Assembly: GCA_002269645.1 (NCBI GenBank)
Contig: NIVC01001674.1
Span: forward strand, 95,520 to 159,519
Direction: 5' to 3'
DNA length: 64,000 nucleotides
DNA from: Macrostomum lignano
Lineage: Eukaryota
Part shown: one piece after another, positions 2,237 to 63,424 of the stretch
Layout: every line of letters starts with the position of its first letter
How positions within the stretch are numbered: the stretch's first letter is position 1
Notes under the pieces: generated by a model
What the model was told of the DNA's origin: nothing
The model's database searches: none
The model's input: only the letters and a program-made list of their open reading frames with translations
Translations under genes and position numbers: made by a program

Positions 2237-3771
2237 AACGCAAATAAAAATGGAATATGGAGGACTAAATAAGCAACATCGGTTCAATTTCGATTTCAAA
2301 AATAGCAGCAGACTAAGTTGCTGTGTGCCAACTTGGTAGACAAATGACAAAAAATTCATGTAATGGCGTGGGCTCACAGCTTCTTCATAAGTTATTAACA
2401 GCTTATTCCTTTAAATTTTCTTGGACACATTATAAACCAATCGTTTATCATGCATAGCCCACCTGGGTGGTTATAATATGTTTCAATACAGTTTTTATTG
2501 CAAACCCGAAGGACATTCTTTTTTATAATCATTGTTATTGAAAACTATAATTTGCGTCCAGGTGGGAAATTACGAGTAATCAGTTTTAACAAAAATAAAT
2601 ATATACTTTTCTCTGAACTAAACAGCAATTAAAATTTAAACAATCTGGTGTATTAAATACGCTGAATTTATAAAATTAAAAATATCAATGCGATCGAATT
2701 TCCGGCTCTGGCGCAAATTTAAATTAATTAAATATTGTTCTGATCGTTAATGAGTTCTACACGTTTAAACACAGCTAATGTACCGCCTGCAACCGCCAAA
2801 TTTATTTATTTTCGATCAGATTTGATGTCAGATCAAATTTGCATGACGTTAAAGCCAGTTTTTTACTGGTCGACCGAATACTTTGGTAAATTACGCATTC
2901 TCGTTCCTGTCTCAGAGAGCTATCGACATCGGCTGTGGCCTTTTCGCCTAGTTCTTGGATAAGCCGTGTAGGTCAGCTTTTTGGAACGTAGAGAGAGAAT
3001 TTGAATCTGCCATATCAGACCCACAAATATATCTATTTTATTACATTCCATAATCAAATCTAATAAACGACTGAGCACAAGGCATTTCAAAAAAACCCCA
3101 ACATATTTATTACATGTCGATCAAAAAGCGTATGAAGAGCATTCTCGACGTTTGTTTAAACGTTAAGAAATATACTGTCACTTTTGAAACAATTTAAACC
3201 AAAAAACTTGGAACATTTGTTAAATTTCTGAGTTTATCATTGCACTTCATCATATGCTCTTATTTTTTGGCACGTCTGACATTTTTAATCTCTGAAATTT
3301 TGACATGTCAGAACATTTTTGGCATGTTCGACATTTTGGCCACATGCAGAAAAGGCTCTGCTTTATCTGCAGTCTTCTCACTTCCTCGACAATTGCTCCT
3401 CTTCTACCTCAATCCTCAATAACATAAAACCCAATCAAACAGAATTTTATGTTGCAGTTGCTAATCCAGTGGCCGGGTTAGAATTGGTTTTCTTCCACTC
3501 ATCTTTTTTGCGTACAACAAAACGAACGATCGCATTGTGCGCATGTCCCACCCACTGCCAAGCCTCTCTGTGAGTTGCCGTTGCTTAGGAAACGGCAGAT
3601 CCAGTGAGTAGCGGACTGGAGCGGATCTCTGTATTGAAAAAACCACGGCAGTGCATTTGCTGAAATTCGGCAGTGCACTGTTACTGCGGCTGCTCACATG
3701 CGCTCGTGCAATGGCAGCTTTTTTTATTGCATTCGCCATCTGCACATGGGCCATCCAGCCTCCTGCCAGAA

Positions 3772-4017
<246 letters not shown>

Positions 4018-4339
4018 TGTACTCCTGCGTCTATATCGTACATGGAAGTGTTTCTGTGAATCAGTATGCCTTCTGCTGCCGTCCTGTCCTTGTCTATGTT
4101 GCCATTGTTTTGATAGTTCGAAGATCCTCTGATAATCTTCTTAATTGGCAGATTAAACTGCAGATTCAGCCCTTCCATGATTTGGTTGCATGATTGCTGC
4201 ACATTTTTGCAATGCTGTTGGCAATTCTTGGAAGGTGGATTCGTGGACCTTATTGAAGGCCTTTCGTACTCCTCATTCCAGCTAAATGAATTCTTTGAGC
4301 GTAAAGAGGTCTTAGCGTTGAGGTACATTCCGCGATCGA

Positions 4340-11808: not shown

Positions 11809-11813
11809 GGTGC

Positions 11814-12685
11814 TATAGCGCTTCAAGTTTATGTCTCTTCTTCTTCACTTGTAGTTTTCCTATAGTTTGTCTAGCGGTTTATTGCAGTCTAAAAGTCTTG
11901 AAGGCTATAACTCCTAACGACTATCGAAGCTCAGTATTTTGGCTGGTCGTAGTGATCTCTCTAGATCGTTATCGCTGATCCTACTTGAGAAAGAACACAA
12001 ACACAATGATTTTCTAGTTTATCTAAACGGAACTCGAAGTGAGTCTATAATTAACCGGAGCGGTGAATCTTTTTCCGCGCTCCGCTCCGATATATATAGT
12101 GTTTTTAAAACCCCTCGATCCGAGGGGGAGATAATACCATAGCAACAGTACGCATGGGAATTTGGGGTGAGTGAGGTCGCAGCCTCGAGTCTAGTACAGT
12201 TATTGTCATTAAACTAGTTGGTTGGCAGGCACGCCAACCCCTTTCCTTTCATCGATCCCGCCTTCTTGTGCGGACTCGGCCTCCTCTCGATCTCGTTCCC
12301 GATCGGGTCCGGGCGGCTCCAGTTTCTGCTGGGTTGGGTCGATGCAGGCAGCTGCAGGTCGGGGTAGGCCGGGTTGATTCCGGGAGCTCCATGTCAGCAC
12401 AGCTGCGTTCCGGTCTCGGGCCATTCCACGTCAGCACAGCTGCGGATCCGGTCTCCAGCAGCTCCACGTCAGCGCCTCTGCGGATCCGGTCTCGGCCAGC
12501 TCCACGTTGGCACAGCTGCTGTCATGCCGAACCGGGCCTGCGCTGAAATGAATAGTTGATCTCTGGGGGCAGATTTTGTCTAATCATTCTCCTTTCGGTT
12601 GCTCGCACCTTCTGCTGTTGCTATTTTTAGTTTTAGTTACCAACTAATGCTCACTTAAATTCCATTCAGATTTCTAAGTCTTATA
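11814..12685 (-). repeat. 3' LTR (872 bp, termini TATA...TATA)
   Basis: 8 substitutions versus 23939-24810 by manual alignment. Confidence 0.96.
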
Positions 12686-12699
12686 TCATCCCCCTTTTG
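12686..12699 (-). promoter_or_regulatory. Polypurine tract
   Basis: AAAAGGGGGATGA immediately precedes the 3' LTR on the minus strand. Confidence 0.8.
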
Positions 12700-12869
12700 A
12701 AGAAATCCTTGACTGGTCAAGGGAGGTGTAGCCTATTGTCTTAATCGAGCTGCTAATCGGCTTACTACTAGTAGATCTGTGAACATATAAGACGTTTGAA
12801 ATCTGATACTTGATGAAAACGAAATCAATAAATGTGTTTGACCTGCACCGTAGATAAATATAGTTTTAC

Positions 12870-13211
12870 TTATAAATTATAGACGTGCGGGTGGTAACCA
12901 TCCAGTAGTGGCACCTGGTATTTGTCCCGGTAATGACGCCAGAAACAATCAATGGTGGGCCACTTCCTGGTGGCGGGCTCGGGCCGATACGTGGTCTCTG
13001 GTGGCCACGTGCCTTGTACTTGTCTTGTGGGGTAAAAATCCTCTAGGTAGCATTCTCGCAGGTCGGTTGTCGACGTGGCGACCGTCAGGCCGCCATCAAT
13101 CTCCTCCTCGGCCACCTGAGTGCTCGCGTCGGCCTTCAGGACCGGCCGCCCCCGGATGTCCACGTCAACAAACTTCTGGCCGGGGCGGCGGTCGTAGTCT
13201 CGGTTGGCCAT
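12870..13211 (-). CDS. Small accessory ORF of LTR element, ~113 aa
   Basis: ATG (MANRD) ORF in a GC-rich island just before the PPT. Confidence 0.45.
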   Translation of the reverse strand: MANRDYDRRPGQKFVDVDIRGRPVLKADASTQVAEEEIDGGLTVATSTTDLRECYLEDFYPTRQVQGTWPPETTYRPEPATRKWPTIDCFWRHYRDKYQVPLLDGYHPHVYNL

Positions 13212-13481
13212 CGCGCTGGAAAGGTTGTCCAATATAGGTGGCTTTCCTAGGCGTTTTTCTTTTATTCCTTAGGTTATTCTCCAGGTCTTCCTCGAATTGC
13301 TAAACTGTCTACTGTTAGTGAGTCTGTGAATATATAAAACGGTGAAATCTGAGATTGATCCCGTTATTTAATCCCTACTGGATATGATATATTAGTGTAA
13401 TTAATAAACATGGCCAGTTAGTTTTTTTTTCATTATTTAAGCGTCCTGTATGCTGCGCCAGGCTTCAACTTGATATTGGAG

Positions 13482-13742
13482 TCAGTTGCGCCACCAGGCC
13501 AGTCGCCCCGACGCCCAAGCCTTGGCTTGGCGAGCGGCGCTACGGATGACGCATTTCATCCAATAGCCCCGACGCCTTGTGGCCGATGGTGTGTCGTCGG
13601 GCCAACTTTCCTCCACGAACCTCTCCAGCTCCATTAATATTCCCACCAGCCGGACCCACCTGCGGTTGTTCATCTCCGTCTGGTGGATGACGGACTGTTG
13701 AGTTCGCATGGTCCCGATGAGTGGGATGTTGACTGTGTTCAT
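13482..13742 (-). CDS. Small accessory ORF of LTR element, 86 aa
   Basis: ATG ORF in a GC-rich island between AT-rich spacers; preceded by TTTCTAG. Confidence 0.4.
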   Translation of the reverse strand: MNTVNIPLIGTMRTQQSVIHQTEMNNRRWVRLVGILMELERFVEESWPDDTPSATRRRGYWMKCVIRSAARQAKAWASGRLAWWRN

Positions 13743-14432
13743 TGCTAGAAATTTGGATAATGTTTCGGATTCCAGTTTGAATGTTATATTTTTGTCTTTT
13801 AATCCTACGTTCTCTGTGGCATACTTGTTGCTACTACCTATCTATTGTGATTGATGTTTAAGTTCAATTGAAATGAAGTTAAACAGAGATAAGTTATGAG
13901 ATTTTCCAAAAAACCGAAACCAAAATACGATGTATTGATTGCGAATATACGTTCCTTGAGATCTCAAGTGAGTAATAACATTTCTGGGACTCTCAGGACA
14001 ATAACATGACTTAATTCATAGTGTTGTAATGGTTATAGCAGTGTGTCATGTGGTTGTGATTTGCTGGTGCTAGTACGTGTCGTAGTGAATAAACGTGTCG
14101 GAATGAATAATGAATTTGCATATAATAAATACGTGTGCCTCATCATGGAATTCGGTGAAGCCTTGTCTTTGCCTTTCTTCGCTATTCTAAGCTTGAGTTC
14201 ACATTGATTGATGGGCCTGGCTTTCCCTAGTTCACTGGTCCGATTGTTCGAGATGTGAATCACCTCCCAACTTTCTTTTAGTGAACTGGGTTCTGCTTTA
14301 AGGATTGCACATTGAGTGAGAGTGCCACAAGGATAGGACGTCCAATCGAATCGTCTTTTCTGTCCTATCGTTGCGTCAGTGTCTCAGCTCTCGTGTCTCC
14401 TTATGCCCCTAACACTTCCGGTCCCTAAGTTC

Positions 14433-15197
14433 CTACTGAGAAGCGGTGGCTTGCGAAGCTTCCAGTGCCATTTTTAGTTGTGGCCACTGGAGCAGCGCCG
14501 GTGAATAAGTGTGGATTACTCGCTTCTCTGCTTCCTGGTTGCTGATACGAATTCCATGATAATTCAACGCTTTACACAGATGCTTGGATAACGTGGTGCA
14601 TATCGCATTGGGTGGTGGGCCCCACGGATGGATCAGATTGACAGCTAGATTATGGCAGAGAACCTTGACTATGACACAGGTAAAAGCGTCTTGTTCCCCG
14701 TAGTGAAAGAAAATTGTTGTTCGGTTACGGAGGATGTTATAGTCCGAGAGGAGCCAGAGTGGGTTATTTTCGTCGGCCAGGATGCGCGCTGTTGTTAGGT
14801 GCGTCACTACATTGGCTGGGATTCGTGGCGCATCCAGCATGTCCAGGTGAATGTCAAATAGTTTCATCTCACCATGCCGATTAGGCTTGCTCTGGATGGA
14901 CTGTCTGTCCATAAGGTTGTGTAGCATCATGAAGGACAGATCTTTTTCTTCCCGTCTGTAGCTCTCTCTCATTACTGTTGGGCACAGCGATCGTCCGTGT
15001 CTAGATCTTCTGATCTCCCATTGGGTTTGGAGATGTCGCCGTTGCTGTTCGGTGGCGGCGCTGTTCCTAATGTTCATCTCCTTCCCGACTGCCGTGCTTG
15101 GTTCTGCCGACGCAAACAATGGCTTGACCAATGTGTAGGTCGTAAGCGGCTCATCGATGGCGCAATCATCCACTGTGTCTAGCTCCGTCGAATACAT
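14433..15197 (-). CDS. Accessory ORF of LTR element, 254 aa, unknown function
   Basis: Uninterrupted ATG ORF between pol and the 3' LTR, bounded by AT-rich spacers. Confidence 0.6.
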   Translation of the reverse strand: MYSTELDTVDDCAIDEPLTTYTLVKPLFASAEPSTAVGKEMNIRNSAATEQQRRHLQTQWEIRRSRHGRSLCPTVMRESYRREEKDLSFMMLHNLMDRQSIQSKPNRHGEMKLFDIHLDMLDAPRIPANVVTHLTTARILADENNPLWLLSDYNILRNRTTIFFHYGEQDAFTCVIVKVLCHNLAVNLIHPWGPPPNAICTTLSKHLCKALNYHGIRISNQEAEKRVIHTYSPALLQWPQLKMALEASQATASQ

Positions 15198-15366: not shown

Positions 15367-18300
15367 TCAAGGAAGTTTCACTTTGTTCCTCAGATTGTAT
15401 TTCTTCCGAGCCGTGTCCGCCTGCGCGTCCAGCTCCTCTGCCTGCACGCTCACTTCCTTAGTGAATCGCTGCCTTGGCTGTCGCTGGTGGCGCTGTGGGT
15501 CGCTCGGTCTGAGGTCAGGAAGCATCACATGTGGTGTTGACGTGGCCATTGGTTTCAGCCTGTCGGTGTGCTGAAAGGACTCCTGATTTGGGTCGTCAAT
15601 TTTCCGGATTGTGACTGAAGTCTGGCTGCTCCTCTTCACAATCTCATAGGGTCCTGTAAATTTTGCCTGGTGCTTTCCCTGTCTCATGGGGATCTGTAGC
15701 ATAACTCTACTGCCTACTTCCAATGTAGTCAGCTTGCGATTAGCATTAGCTTTTCCGGTATTCTTCTCTTGAGCTATCTGCAGGTGATGTCTCGCTATTT
15801 CCCTGGCTAGTACGACGGCTTCTTTCATCCTGGCTGCGAATGATGGCTCGTCCATGTACTTTACCAAGTTCAACTGAGTCGTGAGTTGAGTGGGCATCAG
15901 AGGTCTCCGGGCAAAGACTAACTCGAATGGAGAGTAGGTCGACGATGCTTGCTTTGCTGTGTTGTAGGCGAACATCGTTGCCTGCAGGTACTTGTGCCAC
16001 TGGTCCGGATTCTCGGCTGTGTAGTGGCGTAACATGTTGTGGAGTGTAGAATGCAGTCGTTCCACATGATTCGCTCGAGGGTTATATGGGGATGTCAAGA
16101 TATGTTTGATCCCCAGGATTTCTAAGGCTTCGGCTAGTAGAGTTGCTGTGAAGTTCTTTCCATTGTCCGTGGACATCTCCATCGGGATCCCAAAAGTACA
16201 GAACACTGTGAATAGTGTCTCGGCCGTCGTTTCAGCTGTGAGATCTGGGATCGGAATAGCGAATGCAAATTTCGAAAAACAACAAAGGATTGTGAGAATG
16301 TGTGTTACTGTTTCATTTCTCACTTTAGTGGGCACCATTGGACCCACTATGTCAACCGACAATTTGTCCATTGGTCGCATTGGGACCTCTGAAAACTGGA
16401 TCAGTCCCTTATGGGTTTTTCCTGATTTATTCTTGGCGCACTCTATGCAGTTGTTACAGAATCCTCGGATGTCGGATACCATGGTGATCCAAAAGTAGTG
16501 TCTACGGATTCTCTCCAAGGTTTTCTCAAATCCTAGATGTGCCGCTAATGGCAATGCGTGTAGTGAGTGGCAAATGGTCTCACGATACTGAAACGGTAGG
16601 ATGATCTGCTGTGTTTGATCCGCTGTTCTGTGTAGAACGCCTCCAATCTCCGCGTAGTCCGCCAGGTGTCTATCGATGTGGCGTCTGTACTTCGGAGCCA
16701 GTGATTCTACTGCGGATTCTCCGTTCCACATTGCTCGGATTTGCTGGCAAAATGGGTCTTCCGCCTGGGCGTCCTTAAGTGCTTGCAGGTGTGGGATTGG
16801 ATGCGATATTGTAACATAATTGATTTGTTCCATTGGTTTCTCGTCGTATAATCTCGAGAGTGCGTCCGGTACTGCATGCGTGACTGATGCTCCAGGTACA
16901 TATTTGATCTGTATCTGAAATTGCTGTAAGTATAGTAACCAACGCAAAATTTGGTTGTTCTGCAGTATTCTGCCTGTGAGTAAGCCTCTGAGTGGGGCGT
17001 GATCTACTCTCAGTAGTGTAGGTATGGGAGCAGCGTATAAGAACTGTTCGAAGTTTCTGAATGCATGGTAGACTGCTAGAAGTTCGAGATGAGTGATTCC
17101 GTACCTCGTTTCTGCATCTCTGAGTTGTCTACTCGTGAATGCTATCGGTCTCTCCCGTCCCATCTCATCTTTCTGCGAAAGCATCGCTCCTATTCCTTTA
17201 GTTGAGGCGTCACTCGAGACTATGAACTGTTTGTTGAAATCCGGATGTGCTAGCCTGAGATCCTCGGCTATCCATTTCTTCATGGCCTCGAAAGTGTAGT
17301 CCGCTTCCTCGGTCCACTTTAGGTTGGTCTTCGTTGCTTGTCCTTTTGAGGTCGGTGCCCCTTTGAGCATATCCGTTAGCGGTTGTACTTTCTTAGCATA
17401 ATGTGGGACATGCTTCCTAAAGAAATTACACAGTCCGAGGAATGCTCTTAACTGAGTCACATTATCAGGTTTGGTTACCTTCTGTACCTTGTCCACTAGA
17501 GTGCGGTCTATCTGGATGCCGTTCTGGTCGATCTTGTGTCCCAGGAAGGTAATGCTGGGTTGCGCGAATCGACATTTCTGGAGTTTCAGCTTTAATCCGT
17601 GCTTTTTCAAGGCTTCCAAGGTACTTTTGAGTGTCTTGAGGTGGTGCTCGAACGTTTCCGTGAATACTAGCAAATCGTCCACGTATGTAGAGACTCTCTC
17701 GATACCTTTGAGGATGATGCTGGCAGCCCTAGACAAAGCGGCCGGGCTCGACTGTAATCCCATCGGCGCCCTTAAGAAGACTAGAGTTTCTCCGTCCGGT
17801 GTAGAAATTCCGCAGTACTTTCTACTGTCCTCGTGCAGGGCCACTTGAAAGAATGCCTGGGCCATGTCTAGAGTCGTGAAGTACTTTGATCCTTTGAGTT
17901 TGGCCAGCAGATCTGGAATTCTGGGCATACACTGTCTCTCGGGGACCAACAACCGGTTTAAGTCCCTGAAGTCCACGCACAGGCGATACACCGGTTTGGC
18001 GTCTGGCAACTCCGATTTTTTCTTAACGAGGAGAATTGGTGAAATGTACGGTGTCGGTGCTTTCATGAGAATCCCCTGCATCTCCATTCTGTCTATCACC
18101 TTCTTCAGTTCTCCTGTAAGCTGGTGTGGAATCGGATATCTCTTATTCAGCTTCACTTCCACATTCGGTTTTATGTGGAGTTCGTGTTTCGCTATTTCTG
18201 TAAAGCCTATCTCATCATCTGAGAGACAAAATGCTTCCTTGTTCTCCCAGAGGATCTCTCTTAGTCGTTCTTTCTGCTCTGCTGTTATCTCGGCTCCCTG

Positions 18301-19554
18301 CAGATTAATCGCTTCTCTAAATTCTGTCTCTTTCATTGCCGGTGCCTGTTCCTGATTCACCGCTATTTCATATGTCTCTATCTCTGTCTCATACGAACCT
18401 ATGGCTGTATCCGGGTACAGGGTGATAGGTCTGGCTGATTCGTTAGATATGAGAACGTGTATCTCTCCCTTCTCGTCCGGATGAACTATCTCCTGAGTCA
18501 GACCTATCGCCTTCTTCTCGACGATACTCCTGTCTGGCTCGAAAAGTACCGTGTCAGGCAATTCCTCCTTTGAGTCGGTTCTAGCTGTAATTTGAGCTGT
18601 TTCCCATGGATTCAGGTTTACCACGGAAACTAGTCTGATCTTATTTGTGGCTTCTTGGGCGGCGACGGTCATGATTTCATACGATCTGCCATTTAACTGC
18701 ATCTGTTGCTGTTGGTAATTGATAGACATTCCCTCCTGCAACTGACTTAGGTAATCAATTCCCAGGAGTGCATGGTATCTCCCAGAGCTCAAGTTAGGAA
18801 TGACATGAAACTTAACGTTGACGATTGCGTTTCCTGCTTCGACTGGTAACGTGATCATTCCGGATTGCGTGAGCTTTCCTCCGTGTACTCCTTGTAGCTC
18901 TGTCGTCGGCTTCTCGAAGCTGTCACTGTATCGGCGCGCCGTCGCTTCGTCTATCAGCGACCTCTCTGCTCCGCTGTCTATCAGCGCTCTACCGACTCGC
19001 GTGCCTATCTTCAGTCGCGTCACCGTGTACTTCTGGCCATTCGTAATTGCTGCCACTATCGGCGGTGGCCATGAGCTGATCGTCGGATAGATTGATGAAG
19101 CCAGTGGAGCAGACGGAATCATCGGTTGATGCTGTTCCGTATTTGTGGCTGGTGCCTCTGGTGCTGGGCGGCGTGGGCCCGTGTGTCTGTAGCTAGTGTC
19201 CGTGCTTGGCTGTACTAACAATTCGTGTTGTTCTCGCGTCGCCTTTATCCGTCTTTGAATGGCCCGAATTCCTGGTCGCTCGTACTTTTTCCGATAGAGC
19301 CTGTGACAAACTATTATGGTTTTGAGTATGATGTAGAAGTATACACAGAGAGCGGCAGCTCCAACGGCTATGTTGAAAATATTGAGTTTTATGCCTATCC
19401 ACGGCATCCAAGATGCGAAGTCATAAGTTTTGAGGGCTATGTTTGCTTCCAATGGTGGGAGGTCGAGCGTCTGTGAAGTCTTCTGCTTTGGTAGTTTAAA
19501 TACCGTTCTCAGAAATTCTCTCTGGTCCTTCATCTGCGTGTACAGATCGTGCAC
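15367..19554 (-). CDS. pol: Env TM/tail fused to Pol (protease, RT, RNase H, integrase with GPY/F)
   Basis: TM IFNIAVGAAALCVYFYIILKTIIVC followed by HRLYRKK; PR LIDSGA; RT TYVDD; RNase H SDAS/ELLAV/VDH; IN HHCC plus VDIVG/TDNG/VER; FTGPY. Confidence 0.95.
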   Translation of the reverse strand: MHDLYTQMKDQREFLRTVFKLPKQKTSQTLDLPPLEANIALKTYDFASWMPWIGIKLNIFNIAVGAAALCVYFYIILKTIIVCHRLYRKKYERPGIRAIQRRIKATREQHELLVQPSTDTSYRHTGPRRPAPEAPATNTEQHQPMIPSAPLASSIYPTISSWPPPIVAAITNGQKYTVTRLKIGTRVGRALIDSGAERSLIDEATARRYSDSFEKPTTELQGVHGGKLTQSGMITLPVEAGNAIVNVKFHVIPNLSSGRYHALLGIDYLSQLQEGMSINYQQQQMQLNGRSYEIMTVAAQEATNKIRLVSVVNLNPWETAQITARTDSKEELPDTVLFEPDRSIVEKKAIGLTQEIVHPDEKGEIHVLISNESARPITLYPDTAIGSYETEIETYEIAVNQEQAPAMKETEFREAINLQGAEITAEQKERLREILWENKEAFCLSDDEIGFTEIAKHELHIKPNVEVKLNKRYPIPHQLTGELKKVIDRMEMQGILMKAPTPYISPILLVKKKSELPDAKPVYRLCVDFRDLNRLLVPERQCMPRIPDLLAKLKGSKYFTTLDMAQAFFQVALHEDSRKYCGISTPDGETLVFLRAPMGLQSSPAALSRAASIILKGIERVSTYVDDLLVFTETFEHHLKTLKSTLEALKKHGLKLKLQKCRFAQPSITFLGHKIDQNGIQIDRTLVDKVQKVTKPDNVTQLRAFLGLCNFFRKHVPHYAKKVQPLTDMLKGAPTSKGQATKTNLKWTEEADYTFEAMKKWIAEDLRLAHPDFNKQFIVSSDASTKGIGAMLSQKDEMGRERPIAFTSRQLRDAETRYGITHLELLAVYHAFRNFEQFLYAAPIPTLLRVDHAPLRGLLTGRILQNNQILRWLLYLQQFQIQIKYVPGASVTHAVPDALSRLYDEKPMEQINYVTISHPIPHLQALKDAQAEDPFCQQIRAMWNGESAVESLAPKYRRHIDRHLADYAEIGGVLHRTADQTQQIILPFQYRETICHSLHALPLAAHLGFEKTLERIRRHYFWITMVSDIRGFCNNCIECAKNKSGKTHKGLIQFSEVPMRPMDKLSVDIVGPMVPTKVRNETVTHILTILCCFSKFAFAIPIPDLTAETTAETLFTVFCTFGIPMEMSTDNGKNFTATLLAEALEILGIKHILTSPYNPRANHVERLHSTLHNMLRHYTAENPDQWHKYLQATMFAYNTAKQASSTYSPFELVFARRPLMPTQLTTQLNLVKYMDEPSFAARMKEAVVLAREIARHHLQIAQEKNTGKANANRKLTTLEVGSRVMLQIPMRQGKHQAKFTGPYEIVKRSSQTSVTIRKIDDPNQESFQHTDRLKPMATSTPHVMLPDLRPSDPQRHQRQPRQRFTKEVSVQAEELDAQADTARKKYNLRNKVKLP

Positions 19555-19566
19555 TGTAATTGGCCT

Positions 19567-21102
19567 TCAGATTTCTTCTATTTTAATATCAGTTTCTGGT
19601 GTAAAGATAATCCGTTTGATATTAGGTAATTTCATAGCCTCTATTCCCCAATCTTCGTTCTTCAATTTCTTTACCTGTATAAGTTCGAAGCTGGTGAAAT
19701 TTGAGTCGACCTTGTACACTTTGTCCTCTTTGGGTAACAGGTATCCAGTTCGATTCGAGCAGTCCTGAAAGGTGGGGTGCTCGGTCTCAATTTCCATAGT
19801 TCTTACGTCCAAAAATCCTGTACGGTTGGTTTCCGCTACTTTGTACTTCAACGGAGGTTTGGAGAAACATCGGCTTTGATTCCAGTGTGGTTGATGGAAT
19901 TCGAAGTCGGTCACTGGGATGCATTTGAAGATTACGACATGCTGAGCTATCGTTCTGGCCTTGAGGTTCTTGTCTTTGAACAGTGTCCTCACCGCTAGTG
20001 TTGGTTGCATCCTTATGAAGTCTTTAATGTATCTAAAAATGGTCTGTTGGAGTCGGCATTGTTGAAGGATTACATGACGAGTCAGATCACCAATTCTGTT
20101 TTCCATTGTAAGTTCAACACTCTGTAATTTCGCTGCTAGAGTTTCCTGTGATACCAAGTCTCTCTTTGTCCTCTTTGCTGTGCTAGAGTTATTAAAATTA
20201 CCTTGTACTATCGATAAGAATTCTGCTTCGGATCCTTCTAGTTTAACCAACTTTCCTTGTTCTGACCTGAATAGTTTAGTTGTCGTTCCTCCGCATTTCA
20301 GCTCCATTGAGTGTGGTGGGTGTTTAAAAGTCAAAGCGTAGGTAGCGTCCTTGGACATGAACCATCCTGTGTGTATGGTTCCTTCAATTCGCCTGTCTTC
20401 CTGGTACGGGCAGTCAATTGCAGCGCTGGGTGTCCAGGCATATCTGTACTGGCGTTCTCCAGCGACCTTGAATGTTGTGTCGTAGTATCTCAGAGCTTCC
20501 CATAATTTATTGGGTACTTGTCTCTCCAACGGCGCATCCTTCTCGGCCTGTAGAGTGGACTCGTGAAGACATTTTCCTATGGTGTAATTGCAATGTCCTA
20601 GTGGGATATATAGTGATGACATTTTCTTATTCTCCACGAAGAACGGAATTTTCGTTATCAGCGTGGACGCTGATTTCGTATATCTAGTTTGGGTACTAGC
20701 CGTTGGGTCGAATTCCTCTGTTGTCCAGATGTGAGTAGTAAAGCGTTCAGCTTTGTTCGGGGCTTTCCCATCTTCTTCGAGGATGCCATCTGGTGTTCGG
20801 TAACCTTCCTCCCAGGACTCACAATCTTCCTCTGAAACTAGATGTTTCTGTACCGTAACAGTCATTTCTGGTCTTACCACTTTGGCAGCAATCGTTTTCA
20901 GTGCTACGCTGGTGAAGACATACGTTTCTCGGTAACAGATCTTGAGTGTTGATCGGTGAGTGACCTGGTTTGGTCTAAAGATTGTCAGGTTGATCGGCTG
21001 TCGGTGCTGCTGTATACTGCTAGGCATCTTGCACTCGATGTCCGGTGGCAGCTTGAAGATCTGTGGCCTGGAGGGCTCCGGGCAGTACATCGGTGTGTCC
21101 AC
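19567..21102 (-). CDS. env: Env ectodomain segment, class III (herpes gB / chuvirus G-like) fusogen
   Basis: Cys-rich with multiple N-x-S/T sequons and furin site RTKR (20172-20161). QPTLAVRTLFKDKNLKARTIAQHVVIFKCIPV and CFSKP...GFL...MEI...QDC parallel HSV-1 gB [31 protein letters not shown] and CYSRP...GQL...NEL...EPC (recalled). Confidence 0.8.
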   Translation of the reverse strand: MDTPMYCPEPSRPQIFKLPPDIECKMPSSIQQHRQPINLTIFRPNQVTHRSTLKICYRETYVFTSVALKTIAAKVVRPEMTVTVQKHLVSEEDCESWEEGYRTPDGILEEDGKAPNKAERFTTHIWTTEEFDPTASTQTRYTKSASTLITKIPFFVENKKMSSLYIPLGHCNYTIGKCLHESTLQAEKDAPLERQVPNKLWEALRYYDTTFKVAGERQYRYAWTPSAAIDCPYQEDRRIEGTIHTGWFMSKDATYALTFKHPPHSMELKCGGTTTKLFRSEQGKLVKLEGSEAEFLSIVQGNFNNSSTAKRTKRDLVSQETLAAKLQSVELTMENRIGDLTRHVILQQCRLQQTIFRYIKDFIRMQPTLAVRTLFKDKNLKARTIAQHVVIFKCIPVTDFEFHQPHWNQSRCFSKPPLKYKVAETNRTGFLDVRTMEIETEHPTFQDCSNRTGYLLPKEDKVYKVDSNFTSFELIQVKKLKNEDWGIEAMKLPNIKRIIFTPETDIKIEEI

Positions 21103-22725
21103 TCAGTTCTGGTGTCTTGGGTTTATCGTCTCCGCCGTGGTACAGAGCAATGCGAAGAGTAGTATTTTCAGCAGGAGTGCGCATGTCGGTCCGGCTGGGG
21201 CCTTCCAGCCTTCGCTAGCCTGTTTAGCCCTCTGCTCTCGCTTTCGTCCTTCGAGCTGTTGAGCGGTCTGAACTAGGGCGATTGTCGCCGTCTTGTTCTT
21301 CCTGTTCTGTCGTCTTGCCTGTATGACGTCGCTCCTCGCCCGTGTCGGCGTTGTCGCTTCCATCGTGCTAATTGCCATGATGTGCGCTGACTGGCTGGGC
21401 TCAATCGCCAATTGAGCTGGCTGCGGACTGGGGTCCTGGGCCGTGACTTCGGCGATCCGCTTTGGCTGCTGCCATTGCTGCGGATACCGTCCTTGATCAC
21501 CCTGGCGTGGTCGGCCGCATTCCGATGTCCAATGGTTCTGCATGTTACAGTTCTTGCAATATCGCTGGCCTCTGCACTCCTTTGCAATGTGGCCTCTCTT
21601 TCCGCATTTGTTGCACTTAACGTTACCTCGATCTTGTCTGCCCTGTGACTGCACTTGGCCCCCGGTACTCTTACCGATGTTCCGGTTACCGATGTTCCGG
21701 TTCCTTTGGTAGCACCTGTTGGCTGTGTGGCCTATCTTGTCACAGAGTTGGCATGTCGGCCTTGGGTTGCCGTCTGGGTACTTGGTTGCGGCTTCCTTCT
21801 GTGGCTGTTGAGCTCGATCTTGGGTGCGCCGGTCCGCTTGCCTGATTGTCGTCTCCATCTGTGCTACCATGGCTGTCAGCTTGCGTACGTCGTTGGAGTC
21901 GTGTTCCAGCTCTCGCAGTGCTTGCCATTGAAGTGCTTCACGCACCATCTCCGGGACCGTCTGGTAACGTCCTCTGGCTAGATATAGTCGCAATGCCGGT
22001 GTGGCATTCTGTTGCGCGTGCAGCATGATGTGGTCTTGGACTATGCGTTTGTTGCGGTTGATTCTTGCGCCTCTGTCGTTCTCATTCTCACCCTCCGGTG
22101 CTGGTTCTTGGAACACTGAGTTCTCGACTAGTTGTGTGATGTCGGCAATGAACTTGTTAACATCCTCTCCTGGATGCATCCTCCTCATGGAGAGTTGGAG
22201 TACTGCCGTGGGTCGATCCATCGCTCTGGTGTCATACAGCTCTCGGAGTTGTGTTCTCACCTGTCCGTAGTCTTCTCGGACAGCTTGTGGGAGTCCCGCG
22301 TATTGATTACGGGCGTTAGGACGCAGCATGAGTGGTAGTAGTCGGCACTTCTCTTCGTCCGTTAGGCCATATGTCGCTGTCTGTAGTTCAAACTCCGTCA
22401 GCCATTTGACAAATGGCTGTCCCATTTCGTAGTCTCCTGCCGACAGTTTTAGAGCCTGGACAATGGCTGGTAGGTCCCTGCCGTGTGCCATGGCGAGACG
22501 CTGCTGTAGTTCTCGGACTTGGTTCTGGAGATCATCCATTGCGTTGTCCTCGTTTTCCGAGTCTGATGAGTGCTCGTTGTTGTCTTCCCACTCGTCGTTG
22601 TGGTCTAGCTGGTCTTCTCGCTGATCTAACTGATCTTGTGGCTGTTGTTGTTGATCAACGTCTCCGGGTTCTGGAGTTCTGTCAGTACCTGTTTGAATGT
22701 CTTGGTTTAGAGCTTCGTTATTCAT
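21103..22725 (-). CDS. gag: Gag segment with three CCHC knuckles, ending in a signal-peptide-like stretch
   Basis: CQLCDKIGHTANRC, CNKCGKRGHIAKEC and CKNCNMQNHWTSEC knuckles; capsid-like KWLTEFELQTATYGL; first ATG at 22725; C-terminal CALLLKILLFALLCTTAET. Confidence 0.92.
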   Translation of the reverse strand: MNNEALNQDIQTGTDRTPEPGDVDQQQQPQDQLDQREDQLDHNDEWEDNNEHSSDSENEDNAMDDLQNQVRELQQRLAMAHGRDLPAIVQALKLSAGDYEMGQPFVKWLTEFELQTATYGLTDEEKCRLLPLMLRPNARNQYAGLPQAVREDYGQVRTQLRELYDTRAMDRPTAVLQLSMRRMHPGEDVNKFIADITQLVENSVFQEPAPEGENENDRGARINRNKRIVQDHIMLHAQQNATPALRLYLARGRYQTVPEMVREALQWQALRELEHDSNDVRKLTAMVAQMETTIRQADRRTQDRAQQPQKEAATKYPDGNPRPTCQLCDKIGHTANRCYQRNRNIGNRNIGKSTGGQVQSQGRQDRGNVKCNKCGKRGHIAKECRGQRYCKNCNMQNHWTSECGRPRQGDQGRYPQQWQQPKRIAEVTAQDPSPQPAQLAIEPSQSAHIMAISTMEATTPTRARSDVIQARRQNRKNKTATIALVQTAQQLEGRKREQRAKQASEGWKAPAGPTCALLLKILLFALLCTTAETINPRHQN

Positions 22726-23923
22726 ATACTGATATTCCGGTCTATTGGTTCTTTGCGGAGTTGGCCGCAAATGATATGAATGTAAGTGATGCGTATTTAA
22801 TCAGCTTGACTTCAACAAAATGTCTTGTCAGTGTGCACTCTGATCTATCTTAAGATCTCACAAAAGTTTAAGTGAAATTCAAATATGAGAAAAGGGGCAG
22901 AGGTATCGGATACGTTTCCGGCCAGGTGGTGCTGTCAATATGTAAATTATCTTGCATTTTGTAAATAAATGAGTGCATTTTTTGTCTCGCTTGTCGTAGA
23001 TATGCGCGAGGCTAAATAATATGGTTGCAGCATTTTATACACATGCACTTTTAGCGACTAAGCATTTTGCTTTCCCTCTTTCTGCCTCATTGGCTAGTTG
23101 GGCTACGCATTTCAATTTTCATTCCGAAATGCCTCGAGGTTGTCTCATGGACTGGCTACCTAGGTTGGGGGCACAAATACTTACCCTAACACGCCTTGTA
23201 GTAGATCAACAGCGCTATGGGCGGGCTGTCGCGTTTGCTGGAGAGCGGAGTCAGATAGACACAGTGTACAGAGCCTAAGTGAGTTCTTCCCCCCTCTGTG
23301 TCCGCGCAGTCCTTAGTGCCAAGAGTATGAACTCCCCTCAGAAGGTCTACTATCCTACTGAGCCTATTGAAGCGCGCTATAATAATGAAAAGCCCTATAC
23401 GGTGTACTTTTTAATGCTGCTATTCGCCTGACAGGTCCTTTACCTGTGATGAGTCGGCCGGCTCCTGCAAACTCCTTTATAGTCTAAAGTTTAATCTGTG
23501 GTAATGTTGGCCAGCGCTGCCTTAATTCTGTTAATGAGTACACCTTTTGTAATAATTCGACTATAGTCCTATTTAAACAACTTCCTGGTAGCCCCTCGCT
23601 ATTGATGTGCGGCCTTGGTGATTTGCTTCACCAGCCGCTAAATATTTCTCTACTAAGGAAAATCATACCGTAACTTTGTACATAACTATTCTACTTTTTT
23701 TTCTTGTTTTTAGAATTCAATCGCATTTTTTTGAGCTTTTTCAATGAGAAACGCACATGTCCTCTTACGACACGATGTATAGTATACTTAGTAAAGAAAC
23801 AATTGTATGACAGCACTCATCCTGGCCTTCCGCGTTCCTTCCTCCACCGTCAGAAATTACTCAGCCATTACTGGTCGATGTCGTCAGGTTGAAAAGTGTA
23901 GACTGCTTAATAGATGACTCGTA

Positions 23924-23936
23924 GGTCTGGGAACCA
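23924..23936 (-). promoter_or_regulatory. Primer-binding site, probably tRNA-Glu
   Basis: TGGTTCCCAGACC lies 2 nt after the 5' LTR; it matches 12/13 the complement of the vertebrate tRNA-Glu 3' end (...GGUCAGGGAACCA, recalled). Confidence 0.7.
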
Positions 23937-23938
23937 CG

Positions 23939-24810
23939 TATAGCGCTTCAAGTTTATGTCTCTTCTTCTTCACTTGTAGTTTTCCTATAGTTTGTCTAGC
24001 GGTTTATTGCAGTCTAAAAGTCTTGAAGGCTATAACTCCTAACGACTATCGAAGCTCAGTATTTCGGCTGGTCGTAGTGATCTCTCTAGATCGTTATCGC
24101 TGATCCTACTTGAGAAAGAACACAAACACAATGATTTTCTAGTTTATCTAAACGGAACTCGAAGTGAGTTTATAACTAACCGGAGCGGTGAATCTTTTTC
24201 CGCGCTCCGCTCCGATATATATAGTGTTTTTAAAACCCCTCGATCCGAGGGGGAGATAATACCATAGCAACAGTACGCATGGGAATTTGGGGTGAGTGAG
24301 GTCGCAGCCTCGAGTCTAGTACAGTTATTGTCATTAAACTAGTTGGTTGGCAGGCACGCCAACCCCTTTCCTTTCATCGATCCCGCCTTCTTGTGCGGAC
24401 TCGGCCTCCTCTCGATCTCGTTCCCGATCGGGTCCGGGCGGCTCCAGTTTCTGCTGGGTTGGGTCGATGCAGGCAGCTGCAGGTCGGGGTAGGCCGGGTT
24501 GATTCCGGGAGCTCCACGTCAGCACAGCTGCGTTCCGGTCTCGGGCCATTCCACGTCAGCACAGCTGCGGATCCGGTCTCCGGCAGCTCCACGTCAGCGC
24601 CTCTGCGGATCCGGTCTCGGCCAGCTCCACGTCGGCACAGCTGCTGTCATGCCGAACCGGGCCTGCGCTGAAATGAATAGTTGATCTCTGGGGGCGGATT
24701 TTGTCTAATCATTCTCCTTTCGGTTGCTCGCACCTTCTGCTGTTGCTATTTTTAGTTTTAGTTACCAACTAACGCTCACTTAAATTCCATTCAGATTTCT
24801 AAGTCTTATA
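23939..24810 (-). repeat. 5' LTR (872 bp)
   Basis: Direct repeat of 11814-12685, followed on the minus strand by the PBS. Confidence 0.96.
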
Positions 24811-27534
24811 GGTGCGTTGGTTGCCTCGAGCGGTCACCGTGGGCTTGTCCGGCAGTACAAGCCATCCGCCCATCAATTCGACCGATTTGAATGAGCCTCC
24901 CGGTTTGATGGACTCATAGAAGGGCTGTAAAAATTGAAGTGAAGTAGGAAAGAAATGAATGCGCAAATTTAAGCCCTTTAAATATAATTTAAGCCCTTAC
25001 ATATAGGCCCAAATCATTTACCTGCAGTCGTGGGTAATCCTCAACTCGGAAAACCTCTGAGCGATCAGCAAAATGCTTCGCTACCCGATCGGCCAGCACG
25101 GAAACCTTCCAGTGAGGCAACTGGAGGTTCTGAGCCACTTCCATCAGGGAGACTAGTGGACCAAAAAGGTCCTGCAGGCACAGCAAGTCAAAAACGAAGT
25201 CGCTTCCGAACATTGCATATTGCGACTCTTCGTCATCAGAGCAGCACGGATTTTCTGCTCGAAATGCGGTGTGCAGAGCGGCGTAACTTGCCTCAATGGC
25301 GGACCACTGTCTAAAAAAAGAAGCGTAGTGGGAGGACATTAAATAAATTTTTATTTACCCTTTTCATCACCATTTTTATTAGACTATTTATTGATAATAG
25401 CTGGTACTTACTTGATTGCAGAGCTCGTGAAACGCTGGGCTGCGAAATGCGACATCGCTCGAGCTGAACCGTCTGACGCCTCTTTCAGTGCTGCCTCACC
25501 ACGACCATGGCTGAAATAGGTAGCAAAAAAATTCGCTCGCTTTATAAACCGGCGCAATGACTCCCCATCAGGTCCATCGCGAACATCAGTGACGGCCAGA
25601 TTCAAGTAGTGTGCCGCATCCCACATCACAGGAATCTTTTCGACGTCATCGACAGGGGCCCCGAGCTCGGTCCGAATAGCGCGGCAGAATGTGCCAGCTT
25701 GGTACTGGCCATCAGCGACGATACCCATGATGCTTGCAGTGGGCGTCTTCAACACCTGATAGATTCAAAATGATGAAATTAAGCACTCGTCTAATTTAAA
25801 GTTTAAAACTGTTAGAATCCCTTCAATCGTCCAAAAAATAATACGTTAGTGACGGTTACCTTAAGTGTCTGCATTAGTCTTTTGGCCAGGGCTTCCCCAT
25901 CTGCTTGCATTGCAGAGTCGTACACAGCAGGTGCACCCGCAGGAATCGCTACGGCTTCGCCATTTTCGCAGCGAGCTAGAAGGAGTGCCGCCTGATTCGT
26001 TGTGCGGCCTGGGGTGCTTTTGTCGCAGGTGATGGTCAGCAGAGGCGGCTGTCCAGTCGAAGGCAGAGGACACCGCAGAAACTCTGCACTTTCGTCGTTT
26101 ACGCAGGCGTCTAATAACTTCCAAAGTTCTTTGCAGAATGCACTGTGTAAGGAGGGAGGGTAGGTGAAATGACAAAGTTATTATTTATTAAGTATATCTG
26201 ATTGCATTTAAATAAAATTATTTATAGTGTATAGATATGTTTGCAGGTAAACTTACAAGCCATGGCCAATCTGACCAACTTCACAATCAGACGCATCGAG
26301 CAGACTCATTAGAGTCTCGTAATGCGAACCCGCAGCAGCCATTTCAATTGTCGCAATAGCACAGCGGAGAAGGGTGCGCACAACCTTGCCTTGTGCCGTC
26401 TGTTGTACGACTTCGGTTCGGTAGTCCTTCACAGCCGAATAGTGGGTCTTGCTTGTCAAACAGTGGTTTACGAGTTCATTGCGAAATTTGGAGAACTCGT
26501 CCACACCACTTAGCAAACCTGCGACTCGTTCGGCTGAAAGTCGTAGCCCTCTGCTGAAGGACTTATTCTTTTCAGTGGTGGTGGGGTTCCTGGAAAAGTG
26601 AAAAGCTCGGTACATTAACACCTTAAGTACTTCTTTAAGACTATCCCGTCTAAACGGACTCTACATACAGTACATATAAAAAACATTCGACTTACAGAAT
26701 GCTGTAGATTTGCTCGGCTGTACAGTTGGTAGGCATCAGTTTCGACTTGCAGAGGAACGTGACACAGGGAACGCAGTTAAAAATCGAGTCACCATTCTCG
26801 CACGACTTGAGCGAACAAAACTCAAACTGCAGTAACTCAGCGAAACTATTTGTGGCCGCCACATCATCGTTGCCGAGGTCGATTTTGGACTTATTTTCTT
26901 GATTGCTGCCCTTACTACATTTAGATGTAGCAACAGCATTGACGGATATATTTTCAAGCAGTTTTTTCATCTGCACAATCTCCTGCGTCTGTGACTCGAA
27001 CGCCTTTTGCAGAGCAGTGATCTTCTTAGCCATGTTTTCTGGAGCTGGTGCTGAATCAACAGCTTCGAGTCGCAACTGTAGACGACACTGCAGGTCTGTC
27101 TGCTGCTGCTGACCGGATGACTGCTGCTGACCGGATGACTGCTGCTGACCGGATGACTGCTGCTGATCGGATGACTGCTGCTGATCGGATGACTGCTGCT
27201 GATCGGATGACTGCTGCTGATCGGATGACTGCTGCTGATCGGATGACTGCTGCTGATCGGATGACTGCTGCTGCTGCTGTTCAGACTGATCAACCTCAGC
27301 ACTCAAGTCGTCCTCTTCGTCTTCCACAGTAGCTACATTTTGCAGGGCACGCTCATTCAACAGCCTTCGAACCTCCTGGTTATCTCTTCGAGCGAAATCA
27401 GGAGGTGCATGTCCAACACCTTTGCGCCCCTGGTGTTGACTCTTACAGTGCCGATTAAGATCATGTGGAAGACCACGGACTGTTCGGCAGTTTCGCAAAT
27501 TTCGACCAGCCCTTTAGCAGGACAAACAGTAGTG
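24811..27534 (-). pseudogene. hAT transposase, 5' exons (~27534-26696, ~26650-26257, 26142-25860, 25755-25412, 25310-25022, 24924-24811)
   Basis: Spliced frame gives LTITCDKST (first D), IVADGQ (second D) and WDAAHYLNLAV (CxxH-equivalent). GT-AG introns are phase-consistent except the first junction, which is uncertain. An N-terminal CLSC...H...H finger carries a premature TAA. Confidence 0.82.
27103..27270 (-). repeat. 18-bp coding tandem repeat x9 (QQQSSD/G) in hAT transposase
   Basis: Direct reading. Confidence 0.95.
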
Positions 27535-38841: not shown

Positions 38842-40701
38842 TTAATATAAAGCTATAGAAGCAGCATTCATATATTTATCTTCGCACCTGTTAAACGACC
38901 GCTTAAAATCGCGCGGACTGTAGTCAACGCCTTCAGCTGACAGCCACAGTTCCGCGGTGGCAATCTTCGCCGGATTGGCTGCCAGGCAGACACGGCCCCG
39001 TGACTTGCGACCGGAGATGGAGCTGTTAGTAAACTCCGCGTCGCTAAACAGGCATCGAAGAAGGCTGCGTATCACTGTCAGACGTGCAGTGCTGCGCATC
39101 TCCATGTGCCCCTCCGTTTGGACCAACTCGGCACTCGTCTTGGCGACAACATCCTTCCAATTCTGCAAGCTCGTCTGCAGCTCCATTTTTCTTTTTGGTT
39201 TGACAAGGACGTACGGCTGCTTTTCCGACAGCGGCACTTTCAAAGAGGACTCGGAAGACGACGCTTCACCCGCTGCGGAGCTTTTCGCACACACATTGAG
39301 CAATGCACGTGTCTGTGCAGCTGACAAGCACGTGTCGACTTGTACTGCAAAGTCTGCCTCGCTATCCTGACGCTGCTCGGCGTGGACGGCTTCTTCCTCT
39401 GAATGTTCGTCGGACAGGACGACTGTCGCTGCCGACACGTTGCCACAGAGCATGGTCGAGGCTTGCGTAAGTAAGGCGTTGCACTGCGTCGCTCTGTGCT
39501 CCAGTGCGGCAGCGCGCCGCTGCTCTGTTTGGAGTTCGCGGAGAAGTGACGACTCCATCTTCGTCAGTACTTTATTTCGCTCCTTTAGGGCGTCCAGTTG
39601 GCTGTTGAAAGTCTGCTCCAATGACGCCTTCTTGCGGAGTTCAGTACCTGTGCAATATAATTGTGAAAAAGCGCATTCGCATTATTACCGAGGCAATATG
39701 TAACATCTTTGCGATCACGATTTATGCGAGTATACTGGTAGTTATATACGGGAACGATTCTCACGCAGTGTTTCTACTAGGCTCGAGCTCCGCTGAAGCT
39801 CTATGAGAAGGCTGTGGCATGAGGCGCACGCTCTAGGCAGGTCAACTGGTGTGGCATGAACGTTTGTCATGGCCGCCTCGCCGGTAGCCTCGGCCTTCCT
39901 CTGGAATGGCCCCTTGATTAAGGTGCCAAACCAGCGCTTAGCCTTCTGGCGATTTGTTTTTGCGGTTATGATCAGGACTTCTTCGCCAACCGCGATTCGC
40001 CCAATCACTCCACGTCGACGAGACACAATGAGCGGCGCAGTAATACTTGATGTGGAGACAACCTCTGTACGCATGTGAAAGTGTTTGTATTGAAACACAA
40101 AAAAACGCTCTTTGTCCTCCATTTTGTAGCCCTGCATTTCACCAATTTCCTGATCGTTATCAGCGTTTTCAGCCTCGAGCGACACTGCAATTTCAGTCGG
40201 GGCTGCAGCAGTTGAAGGCGCCGAGACAGCAGCAGGAGGCGCCGAGACAGAAGCAGGAGACGCCGAGACAGCAGCAGGAGGCGCCGAGACAGAAGCAGGA
40301 GGCGCCGAGACAGCAGCAGGAGGCGCCGAGACAGAAGCAGGAGGCGCCGAGACAGCAGCAGGAGGCGCCGAGACAGCAGCAGGAGGCGCCGAGACAGCAG
40401 CAGGAGGCGCCGAGACAGCAGCAGGAGGCGCCGAGACAGCAGTTGGAGGCGCCGAGACAGCAGCAGGAGGCGCCGAGACAGCAGTTGGAGGCGCCGAGAC
40501 AGCAGTTGGATTCAACTGTTTCGAACCTCGAGGCGCTGCAACCGAGTCGCAGGAATGCGACTTACTTTTCTTGGATGGCTTCTTGCTGTGTGGTTTAGCA
40601 GGCTGCTGACAATGGTTGGAAGCCTTGCGCTTTCTTTTTTCTGTAGACGATTCCGACGTAGCTGTCTTCACGGATGCCTTGCCAGAAGCTTTGGACGTCA
40701 T
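38842..40701 (-). CDS. EnSpm second gene: spliced (40701-39750 + 39647-38842), Pro/Ala repeat, coiled coil, C-terminal BEN-like domain
   Basis: A 102-nt GT-AG intron joins two ORFs in frame; RSLLRCLFSDAEFTNSSISG...NPAKIATAE...FKRSFNRCED fits a BEN pattern. Confidence 0.7.
40214..40506 (-). repeat. 21-bp coding repeat x14 (AVSAPPA)
   Basis: Direct reading. Confidence 0.95.
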
Positions 40702-46152: not shown

Positions 46153-47339
46153 AAAGAGTCGTCTTGTGGTAGAAGCAAAATAGACCGGCTAACGCGATAA
46201 TGTTATATAACGAAGATTGCGAAATCTGGCTTGCAAGTCACGACCCGACACGCTTAGCAAATAAAAGAAAACCACAAAACGTTAAAAGTCCCACCTGGAC
46301 ATGACGTTCCGGCAGAACCATGTTTGCCATTGGCAGCCGCATTACTGTTGGCGTCATTGTCCTCAACCGGTGGTACGCAAGCAACAGAAGAACCCGATTG
46401 TTCGCCTGGTGGCCCAACTCGGAGCGGAGAACGTGAGTGGGATCGTCGCCGAGCGCGGTCTTGAATCTTCCGGCGTACGCGATAGCGCTTCATGAACTGT
46501 GCACGACGAAACTTAGCGTAATCTTCGTCATTCTCCATTGTTTATGCTGTAAGATTGAGTGACACACGAAGCTGAATTCACCTAGCTTACTGATACTAAG
46601 CTACACTATACTAATACTATACTATGTTATGCTCAGCTATACTATAATACTATTCTAAGCTATACTATACTATAATTAATACTACCAATAATAACTACCC
46701 ATTAATAATTATTACTACTTACTAATATTAAATGACGGCACCTATGTATGTACTGATTTTAAGATTATTTAAGGCTGTTGAAATAAGGATCGGAAGGTCA
46801 AGGCTGCAACTTGCATAGCAGAATTGGTTCAGTTATTATTTAACAATAGTGTCAAAAGTGAGCACAAAATGGTACAGTTGAAGTAATTGCAATAACGAAG
46901 CGTTTTAAAAAAACGTGGCTTAGGCCAACGCTGAATACAGTACCGAACGCAAACAAGAGCGAAAGAATTTATACAGTTCACAAAGTATCGGCCTGCACGC
47001 ATTTTTCTGAAATTGGAGCGGACAAACAGTCGGATAAAAAACCGGACGACAGATCGGACAAATTTTTCCCTCATCCGAAATTCATCCGCTTTCTCGTCCA
47101 CTTTCTCGTCCGCTTTTGGCCTGGAATGGAAGCGGACGAGAAATCGAATGAAATTCGGACGAAACATCAAAAAGAAGCGGATGATTCGCCCGATATTTGG
47201 TCCGCAGTTTCGTACGACGTCGAAATCGGATGAAAACCGGGTGAATTTCGTCCGCTTCTGAATTTCGTACGGAAATCGGTCAAAAATCGGATGGGAATCG
47301 GACAAATAAGCGGACCAAAGTCCAGGCGGGAGTATTAAG

Positions 47340-54933: not shown

Positions 54934-55097
54934 TCTCTCAAGTTACTGCTCACTCACTGTATTTGTAGTTGCAAAGCAGTGGATTTTTAGGCAGTCATGT
55001 GCGTTTAATATCTAATGTCTACCAATATTTCTTATGTCGGCTTGACCGGCACAATTTCTGTTATGCATGGGCTATAATCTATGAATGTCAAAAAATG

Positions 55098-57040: not shown

Positions 57041-57773
57041 CAGTCTGGGTCACATCACCAGTCAACGTGGTCACATCACCAGTCAGTCTAGGTCACATCA
57101 CCAGTCAGTCTGGGTCACATCACTAGTCAACTGGGTCACATCACCAGTCAGTCTGGGTCACATCACCAGTCAACTGGGTCACATCACCAGTCGGTCTGGG
57201 TCACATCACCAGTCAGTCGGGTCACATCACAAGTCAACGTGGTCACATCACCAGTCAGTCGGGTCACATCACCAGTCAACTGGGTCACATCACCAGTCAG
57301 TCGGGTCACATCACCATTCAACTGGGTCACATCACCAGTCAACGTGGTCACATCACTAGTTAGTCGGGTCACATCACCAGTCAATCGGGTCACATCACAA
57401 GTCAACGAGGTCACATCACCAGTCAGTCGGTCACATCACCAGTCAACTGGGTCACATCACCAGTCAGTCGGGTCACATCACAAGTCAACGTGGTCACATC
57501 ACCAGTCAGTCGGGTCACATCACCAGTCAACTGGGTCACATCACCAGTCAGTCGGGTCACATCACCAGTCAACATGGTCACATCACCAGTCAACGTGGTC
57601 ACATCACCAGTCAGTCTAGGTCACATCACCAGTCAGTCTGGGTCACATCACTAGTCAACTGGGTCACATCATCAGTCACCAAGGTCACATCACCAGTCCC
57701 TAAGGTCAAAACACCAGTAGAGGTCATGACACCAGTAGAGGTCACATCACCAGTCACTAAGGTGATGTGACCA
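57041..57773. repeat. ~21-22-bp minisatellite (GGTCACATCACCAGTCA...), more than 30 copies
   Basis: Direct reading. Confidence 0.96.

Positions 57774-62050: not shown

Positions 62051-63424
<1,374 letters not shown>

Follow-up and report, generated by a model that had tools for sequence, protein, structure and literature searches.

What is the role of the strongly hydrophobic segment that follows the zinc knuckles of a Gag-like protein on the minus strand of this DNA, and to which protein does it belong? The initial annotation had placed it at the C-terminus of Gag and proposed that it translocates Env into the ER and leaves Gag tethered to the membrane, in the manner of the flavivirus capsid anchor. 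In the window, by which we mean the whole 64-kb stretch of DNA analyzed, the segment lies within a 13-kb LTR retroelement of the Ty3/gypsy type. We concluded that it is probably the internal ER signal of one Gag-Env-Pol polyprotein; no separate Gag gene ends there.

A Ty3/gypsy-type element with a single reading frame

The following features delimit the element.

23939..24810, minus strand: 5' LTR, 872 bp, termini TAT...ATA
11814..12685, minus strand: 3' LTR, 872 bp
11809..11813, with a second copy at 24811-24815: target-site duplication, 5 bp
23925..23936, minus strand: primer-binding-site-like sequence starting TGG, 2 nt from the LTR
12686..12698, minus strand: polypurine tract

The two LTRs are 99.1% identical, with 8 differences, every one of them a transition, and they end in TAT...ATA instead of the usual TG...CA (positions 11814, 12685, 23939, and 24810). 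The primer-binding-site-like sequence may resemble the 3' end of tRNA-Glu; there is no tRNA gene in the window, and a second copy of the element was not found in the 64 kb. Between the 5' LTR and the Gag ATG lies a leader of 1,213 nt (22726-23938), and the 15 upstream ATGs inside it suggest splicing, shunting, or internal initiation.

From the Gag ATG, a single frame of 2,452 residues (22725-15367) encodes, in order, Gag, the signal, a gB-like class III Env, a transmembrane helix, and PR-RT-RH-IN.

21184..22725, minus strand: Gag part, residues 1-514, cytosolic in the model; aligns with the Gag region of P0002, P0059, and P0014
21517..21753, minus strand: three CCHC zinc knuckles, from the sequence and Pfam zf-CCHC (E 3.8e-05)
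21184..21516, minus strand: linker of 111 residues, containing two basic patches; candidate protease-site motifs occur here in variant form only
21315-21292, minus strand: basic patch RRQNRKNK
21246-21223, minus strand: basic patch RKREQRAK
21133..21183, minus strand: predicted internal signal sequence, with h-region 21183-21145, c-region CTTA, and a predicted cut between 21133 and 21132
19381..21132, minus strand: Env ectodomain, gB-like class III fusion fold, with 12 Cys and 8 N-glycosylation sequons
21103..21105, minus strand: first in-frame TGA, the tenth codon past the predicted cut, in the Env ectodomain
20161..20172, minus strand: furin-like site RTKR, from the sequence, in low-confidence loop 302-317 of the model
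19567..19569, minus strand: second in-frame TGA, in the Env ectodomain, 63 codons before the transmembrane helix
19324..19380, minus strand: Env transmembrane (stop-transfer) helix, with a basic tail on its cytosolic side
15367..19323, minus strand: Env tail joined in frame to Pol
19023-18733, minus strand: protease
18024-17530, minus strand: RT
17316-16918, minus strand: RNase H
16593-16078, minus strand: integrase core
14433..15197, minus strand: extra ORF 3' of pol, 254 codons

No frameshift occurs across Gag, Env, and Pol, and the frame is broken solely by the two in-frame TGAs. Because both TGAs sit within the Env ectodomain, the boundaries in the list of ORFs do not match the gene boundaries, and the third listed ORF opens with the end part of Env. 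The earlier statement that Gag ends in the hydrophobic segment is thus true of this copy only through the TGA, since the frame continues via Env, the second TGA, the helix, and all of Pol. The domain order PR-RT-RH-IN is that of the Ty3/gypsy type. A search with Pol returned no close relative, most matches being about 25-35% identical, and an Env match was present in 2 of the 108. The extra 254-codon ORF had no Pfam match and no homologue, and its scores against Atlas were at chance level; downstream of it (12686-14432) lie ~1.7 kb with shorter ORFs.

The stretch between the two TGAs matches Pfam Monjiviricetes_fusion (PF24664; E 4.6e-10). A structural model of Env built from a 49-sequence alignment (pLDDT 83.9, pTM 0.55) matches herpesvirus gB structures, with a best E value of 2.8e-19 and TM-scores of about 0.3-0.5, and an Env profile search recovers gB by sequence as well (E 1.5e-20). 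In the closest relative, P0002, a long Thr/Pro-rich mucin-like insertion (residues about 1015-1200) occupies the position of the furin loop.

The segment has sequence features of a cleavable signal

The initial description of this region (knuckles, a basic linker, a hydrophobic core, and small residues at -3 and -1) was borne out by the minus-strand sequence. The core is CALLLKILLFALL (21183-21145) and is followed by C-T-T-A/E, the slash marking the predicted cut; position -3 is T and position -1 is A, and CALLLKILLFALL-CTTA/ET spans 21183-21127. This segment provides the most hydrophobic 11- and 15-residue windows of the entire 2,452-residue frame, and its 13-residue Kyte-Doolittle mean (KD13) of 2.78 was reached by 1 of 2,000 shuffles of the Gag ORF. 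Of the features of cleavable signals, a positive n-side, a hydrophobic core of 7-15 residues, and small residues at -3 and -1 are all present, the last being weakly discriminating, as at least one such site was found in 25 of 25 proteins tested and the window protein has five candidates.

The TGA had been placed 8 codons past the cut; nine residues (ETINPRHQN) in fact intervene, and the TGA is the tenth codon. Its assignment to the interior of the Env ectodomain, by comparison, was correct (21105-21103 lies in 19381..21132).

The predicted signal is conserved among Gag-Env homologues

A word-index search for long relatives of Env found none; an exhaustive search with Env returned 74 proteins, of which 23 encode a CCHC knuckle ahead of Env within one ORF. 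Each of these 23 carries a window with a KD13 of at least 2.0, 5-25 residues ahead of the first ectodomain Cys and with no stop; the set was chosen for an open knuckle-to-Env frame and is therefore uninformative on how often stops occur there. Among the other 51 matches, 15 have a similar internal segment with at least 40 residues upstream (13 at 2.0 or more and two at 1.82), 5 begin with the segment, 3 begin between the segment and the first Cys, and the remaining 28 start at a more internal position or lack coverage there. The homologue set is diverse (median identity, 24%), some of its long members may be spliced gene models, and P0003 is a chimera.

With the window protein included, 1 of 24 rows had a second-best window in this stretch of 2.0 or more; the Gag part likewise attained this value in 1 of 24, and the net charge on the N-side was positive in 22 of 24. 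As a control, we took 24 ordinary Gag-Pol proteins from the Pol search, and none of their knuckle-to-protease linkers reached a KD13 of 2.0 (0/24). A second helix (KD19 of at least 1.6) lies between Env and protease in 15 of the 16 proteins that reach the protease, again counting the window protein, and sequon density per 100 residues is 1.07 in the ectodomains versus 0.62 on the Gag side. Absence of the segment from homologous copies had been named as grounds for giving up the proposal of an Env-translocating signal; instead, the segment is present in 23 of 23 Gag-Env homologues at a conserved position, ahead of a Cys- and sequon-rich gB-like ectodomain and a second hydrophobic helix, and the proposal is strengthened.

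Six proteins are unbroken from Gag to integrase (P0002, P0031, P0033, P0034, P0052, and P0086). P0002, whose Env is 31% identical, has the same layout, and its alignment runs through both TGA positions. P0086 (C. brenneri CAEBREN_01577) shares this layout and the predicted internal signal. An RT tree (108 sequences; FastTree, rooted at the midpoint) groups the window element with P0002 (0.973), and P0086 falls in a separate clade (1.0) from these two, the deeper nodes being weak. The predicted internal signal is thus a family-wide feature, found in 23 of 23 Gag-Env homologues and in P0086, across at least two RT lineages. P0122, a chromodomain-bearing Gag-Pol-Env single ORF, has a like segment before Env (residues 1780-1792), and here the predicted signal is reused in another gene order. 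P0030, P0033, and P0052 each have a pair of DTG/DSG-type motifs behind Env, and in P0030 and P0052 Pfam finds a protease at either position; a tandem protease is possible.

A candidate protease motif in the linker

The motif [VI]N-x-[ILVM], picked after inspecting the sequences, occurs in 17 of 25 knuckle-to-signal linkers versus 3.1 expected from shuffles. In favor of a specific enrichment, the motif is not overrepresented in the ectodomains (7 versus 12.7 expected). It failed two junction controls, however, being unenriched in ordinary Gag-protease linkers (2/24) and in Env-tail linkers (3/16). The window protein has no strict form of it, only a looser one. As a protease site the motif is a lead, and cutting at this candidate site could release Gag from its anchor.

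The two TGAs are very probably lesions

The divergence of the LTRs predicts 1.15 new stops (0.5-2.3, as the LTRs differ at only 8 sites). Weighting by sequence context gives 1.24, and under this weighted spectrum TGA accounts for about 80% of new stops; the probability of two or more is 0.32-0.35. Gag and Pol are free of stops; under random decay, the probability that both stops fall in the ectodomain is about 0.05, a point against decay. RNA structure 3' of both stops was unremarkable (z from -1.26 to +0.73). The homologue searches, in which the closest relative is 31% identical, did not find a sister copy. Counting the homologues with a residue at the alignment column of the first stop (1 of 24) was uninformative, since the window protein and P0002 have a longer spacer there. 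Because LTR divergence predicts about 1.2 new stops, decay explains the TGAs, and we consider them very probably nonsense lesions acquired after insertion, which leave this copy dead for Env and Pol. The initial annotation was incomplete: it missed that the frame continues into Pol downstream of the Env anchor and that the TGA is probably a lesion.

A model for the topology of the polyprotein

Gag, signal, ectodomain, transmembrane helix, and Pol lie in one frame, and relatives are open throughout; our model is built on these facts, and its translocation and cleavage steps are drawn from standard membrane-protein biogenesis. Very probably, Gag would be made in the cytosol, after which the segment would engage the translocon, its basic flank facing the cytosol; the ectodomain would pass into the lumen, and the second helix would stop transfer and so leave PR, RT, and IN in the cytosol. 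Signal peptidase would then probably cut on the lumenal side to yield Gag-anchor and Env-TM-Pol. There is perhaps an even chance that both halves would stay membrane bound, such that Gag and Pol would be copackaged with Env at 1:1:1 without frameshifting and the protease of the element would later free the nucleocapsid from the anchor.

We read the function of the segment from its sequence, and an uncleaved signal-anchor would fit the same data. Env would then span the membrane twice, carrying Gag at its N-terminus and Pol at its C-terminus until both are trimmed off by the viral protease, and PMC13524379 describes gB-type ectodomains that lie between a signal peptide and a TM or between two TMs. 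We consider such an arrangement unlikely, however, as an apolar core of ~13-15 residues is followed directly in nearly all homologues by small polar residues and often a Pro, as in cleavable signals, five matches start with the same segment as an ordinary N-terminal signal, and gB-type fusogens are established to be type I proteins with a free N-terminus. These last five, which make up 5 of the 74 matches, could also mean that Env or Env-Pol is translated from a subgenomic RNA, for which the segment is chiefly a conventional N-terminal signal, with Gag untethered, and Oikopleura Tor elements are reported to make env RNA via splicing or internal promoters (PMC4402516). This seems quite improbable here: the nearest in-frame upstream Met lies 60 residues before the core, a simple scan of 21101-21500 found no pyrimidine-rich acceptor, and 38 of the 74 matches keep at least 40 in-frame residues upstream of the signal.

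A further possibility, which we regard as very improbable, is programmed leakiness of the first TGA: termination there would give a surplus of anchored Gag, and readthrough would give Env-Pol. The position of the TGA would leave Gag and its anchor whole, an excess of Gag is known to be usually needed by retroelements, 3 of the 74 matches begin just past the signal, and the confinement of both stops to the ectodomain (P about 0.05) would be in keeping with such a role; but there is no 3' structure (z about 0), the base after the TGA is G instead of the C typical of leaky UGA contexts, the second TGA would truncate Env ahead of its anchor, the frame is open in P0002 and in 22 other proteins, and decay alone predicts about 1.2 stops. 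There is accordingly only a slim chance that the main product of this lineage is a membrane-anchored Gag and that Env-Pol arises only when ribosomes read through a codon reached after translocation begins; if that were true, a retroelement would set its Gag:Env:Pol ratio by a single leaky stop downstream of a capsid anchor like that of flaviviruses. We therefore prefer the cleaved internal signal. The further suggestion that the anchor replaces myristoylation was not supported. Gly2 occurs in 0 of 13 N-termini, but Ty3/gypsy Gags are not known to be myristoylated at all, and the argument adds little.

Other features of the window

A broken RNA-dependent RNA polymerase fragment (62191-62900, minus strand; Pfam RdRP_1, E 3e-12, above cutoff) is, as judged from this match, a piece of an endogenous RNA virus; its motifs look partitivirus-like, and it had no match among solved structures. 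No host gene was identified among the Pfam matches of the window. About 2.7 kb from it lies a second, unrelated gag-like ORF of 427 codons (58235-59518, minus strand), with zf-CCHC above cutoff, a weak Retrotrans_gag match, and no pol identified behind it. Long minus-strand ORFs without Pfam matches occupy 43363-46188 and 52375-54942; our impression is that the former, an ORF pair, has the look of a transposase of a DNA transposon interrupted by a single stop and that the latter looks like a tyrosine-recombinase-type protein. Minisatellite arrays with units of 8-27 bp are found at 3707-4070, 27070-27303, 40143-40583, 45582-46148, and 57038-57780.

Comparison with known systems

GAG-ENV-POL elements with a gB-type Env have been reported in nematodes, bryozoans, and flatworms and are not monophyletic (Chary and Hayashi, PMC13524379). 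Like these errantiviruses as the main text of that paper presents them, the window element has a Ty3/gypsy Pol, an HSV/gB-type class III Env, the order gag-env-pol, LTRs and a PBS, and an Env between two hydrophobic segments. The same text treats its elements as three ORFs, whereas ours is one frame broken by two stops; the terms "polyprotein," "fused," "single ORF," "readthrough," and "frameshift" are absent from the main text of PMC13524379, no treatment of topology, Gag tethering, or a signal/anchor reading was found in the text searched, and its element table lacks the PBS 8-mer of the window element. Held against the filter of PMC13524379 (intact, usually multicopy elements), the window element has two stops against a prefilter of five and has RT and IN in one continuous ORF. 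When we searched the literature for previous accounts of such a signal, PMC13524379 was the only directly relevant source, and a description may yet be in print. The gene order is already known, and the element is a further gB-type member of the GAG-ENV-POL group. What is added is a mechanism open to experiment, in which one signal and one stop-transfer helix would sort a single polypeptide into a cytosolic capsid, a lumenal fusogen, and cytosolic enzymes.

Nematode endogenous retroviruses (NERV) with a continuous gag-env-pro-pol ORF, an RNA virus-like glycoprotein, and an extra ORF were reportedly described by Sacco et al. in 2022. On that description, they share their continuous gag-env-pro-pol frame with the window element, apart from its two in-frame stops; in an RT tree with weak deep nodes, the window element pairs with P0002 outside the clade of C. 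brenneri P0086, itself only assumed to be a NERV, and we did not file the window element as NERV. Atlas virus (Belpaoviridae) likewise has a single polyprotein that includes Env, of 2,828 residues, but in the order Gag-Pol-Env and with a phlebovirus-like class II Env, and its Gag, unlike that of the window element, does not adjoin a membrane signal (PMC9094657).

In flaviviruses, according to PMC7601889, the C-terminal hydrophobic segment of the capsid is the signal for the next glycoprotein, signal peptidase cuts it lumenally, and a cytosolic cut may free the capsid. The likeness of the window segment to this anchor C/prM signal is one of functional analogy, not homology. The capsid-anchor comparison made at the outset holds for the topology; it does not extend to a dibasic protease site directly before the anchor, as the flavivirus serine protease cuts a dibasic site beside the anchor (PMC7601889), whereas the nearest dibasic pair in the window protein lies about 19 residues upstream and its protease is aspartic. 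Unlike in flaviviruses, moreover, the enzymes of the window element hang directly on a single Env tail. If Gag and Pol both stay membrane bound, Pol would be packaged via the Env tail and not as Gag-Pol, at a fixed 1:1:1 ratio, and such packaging, if true, would depart from the usual retroviral plan and parallel that of flavivirus polyproteins.
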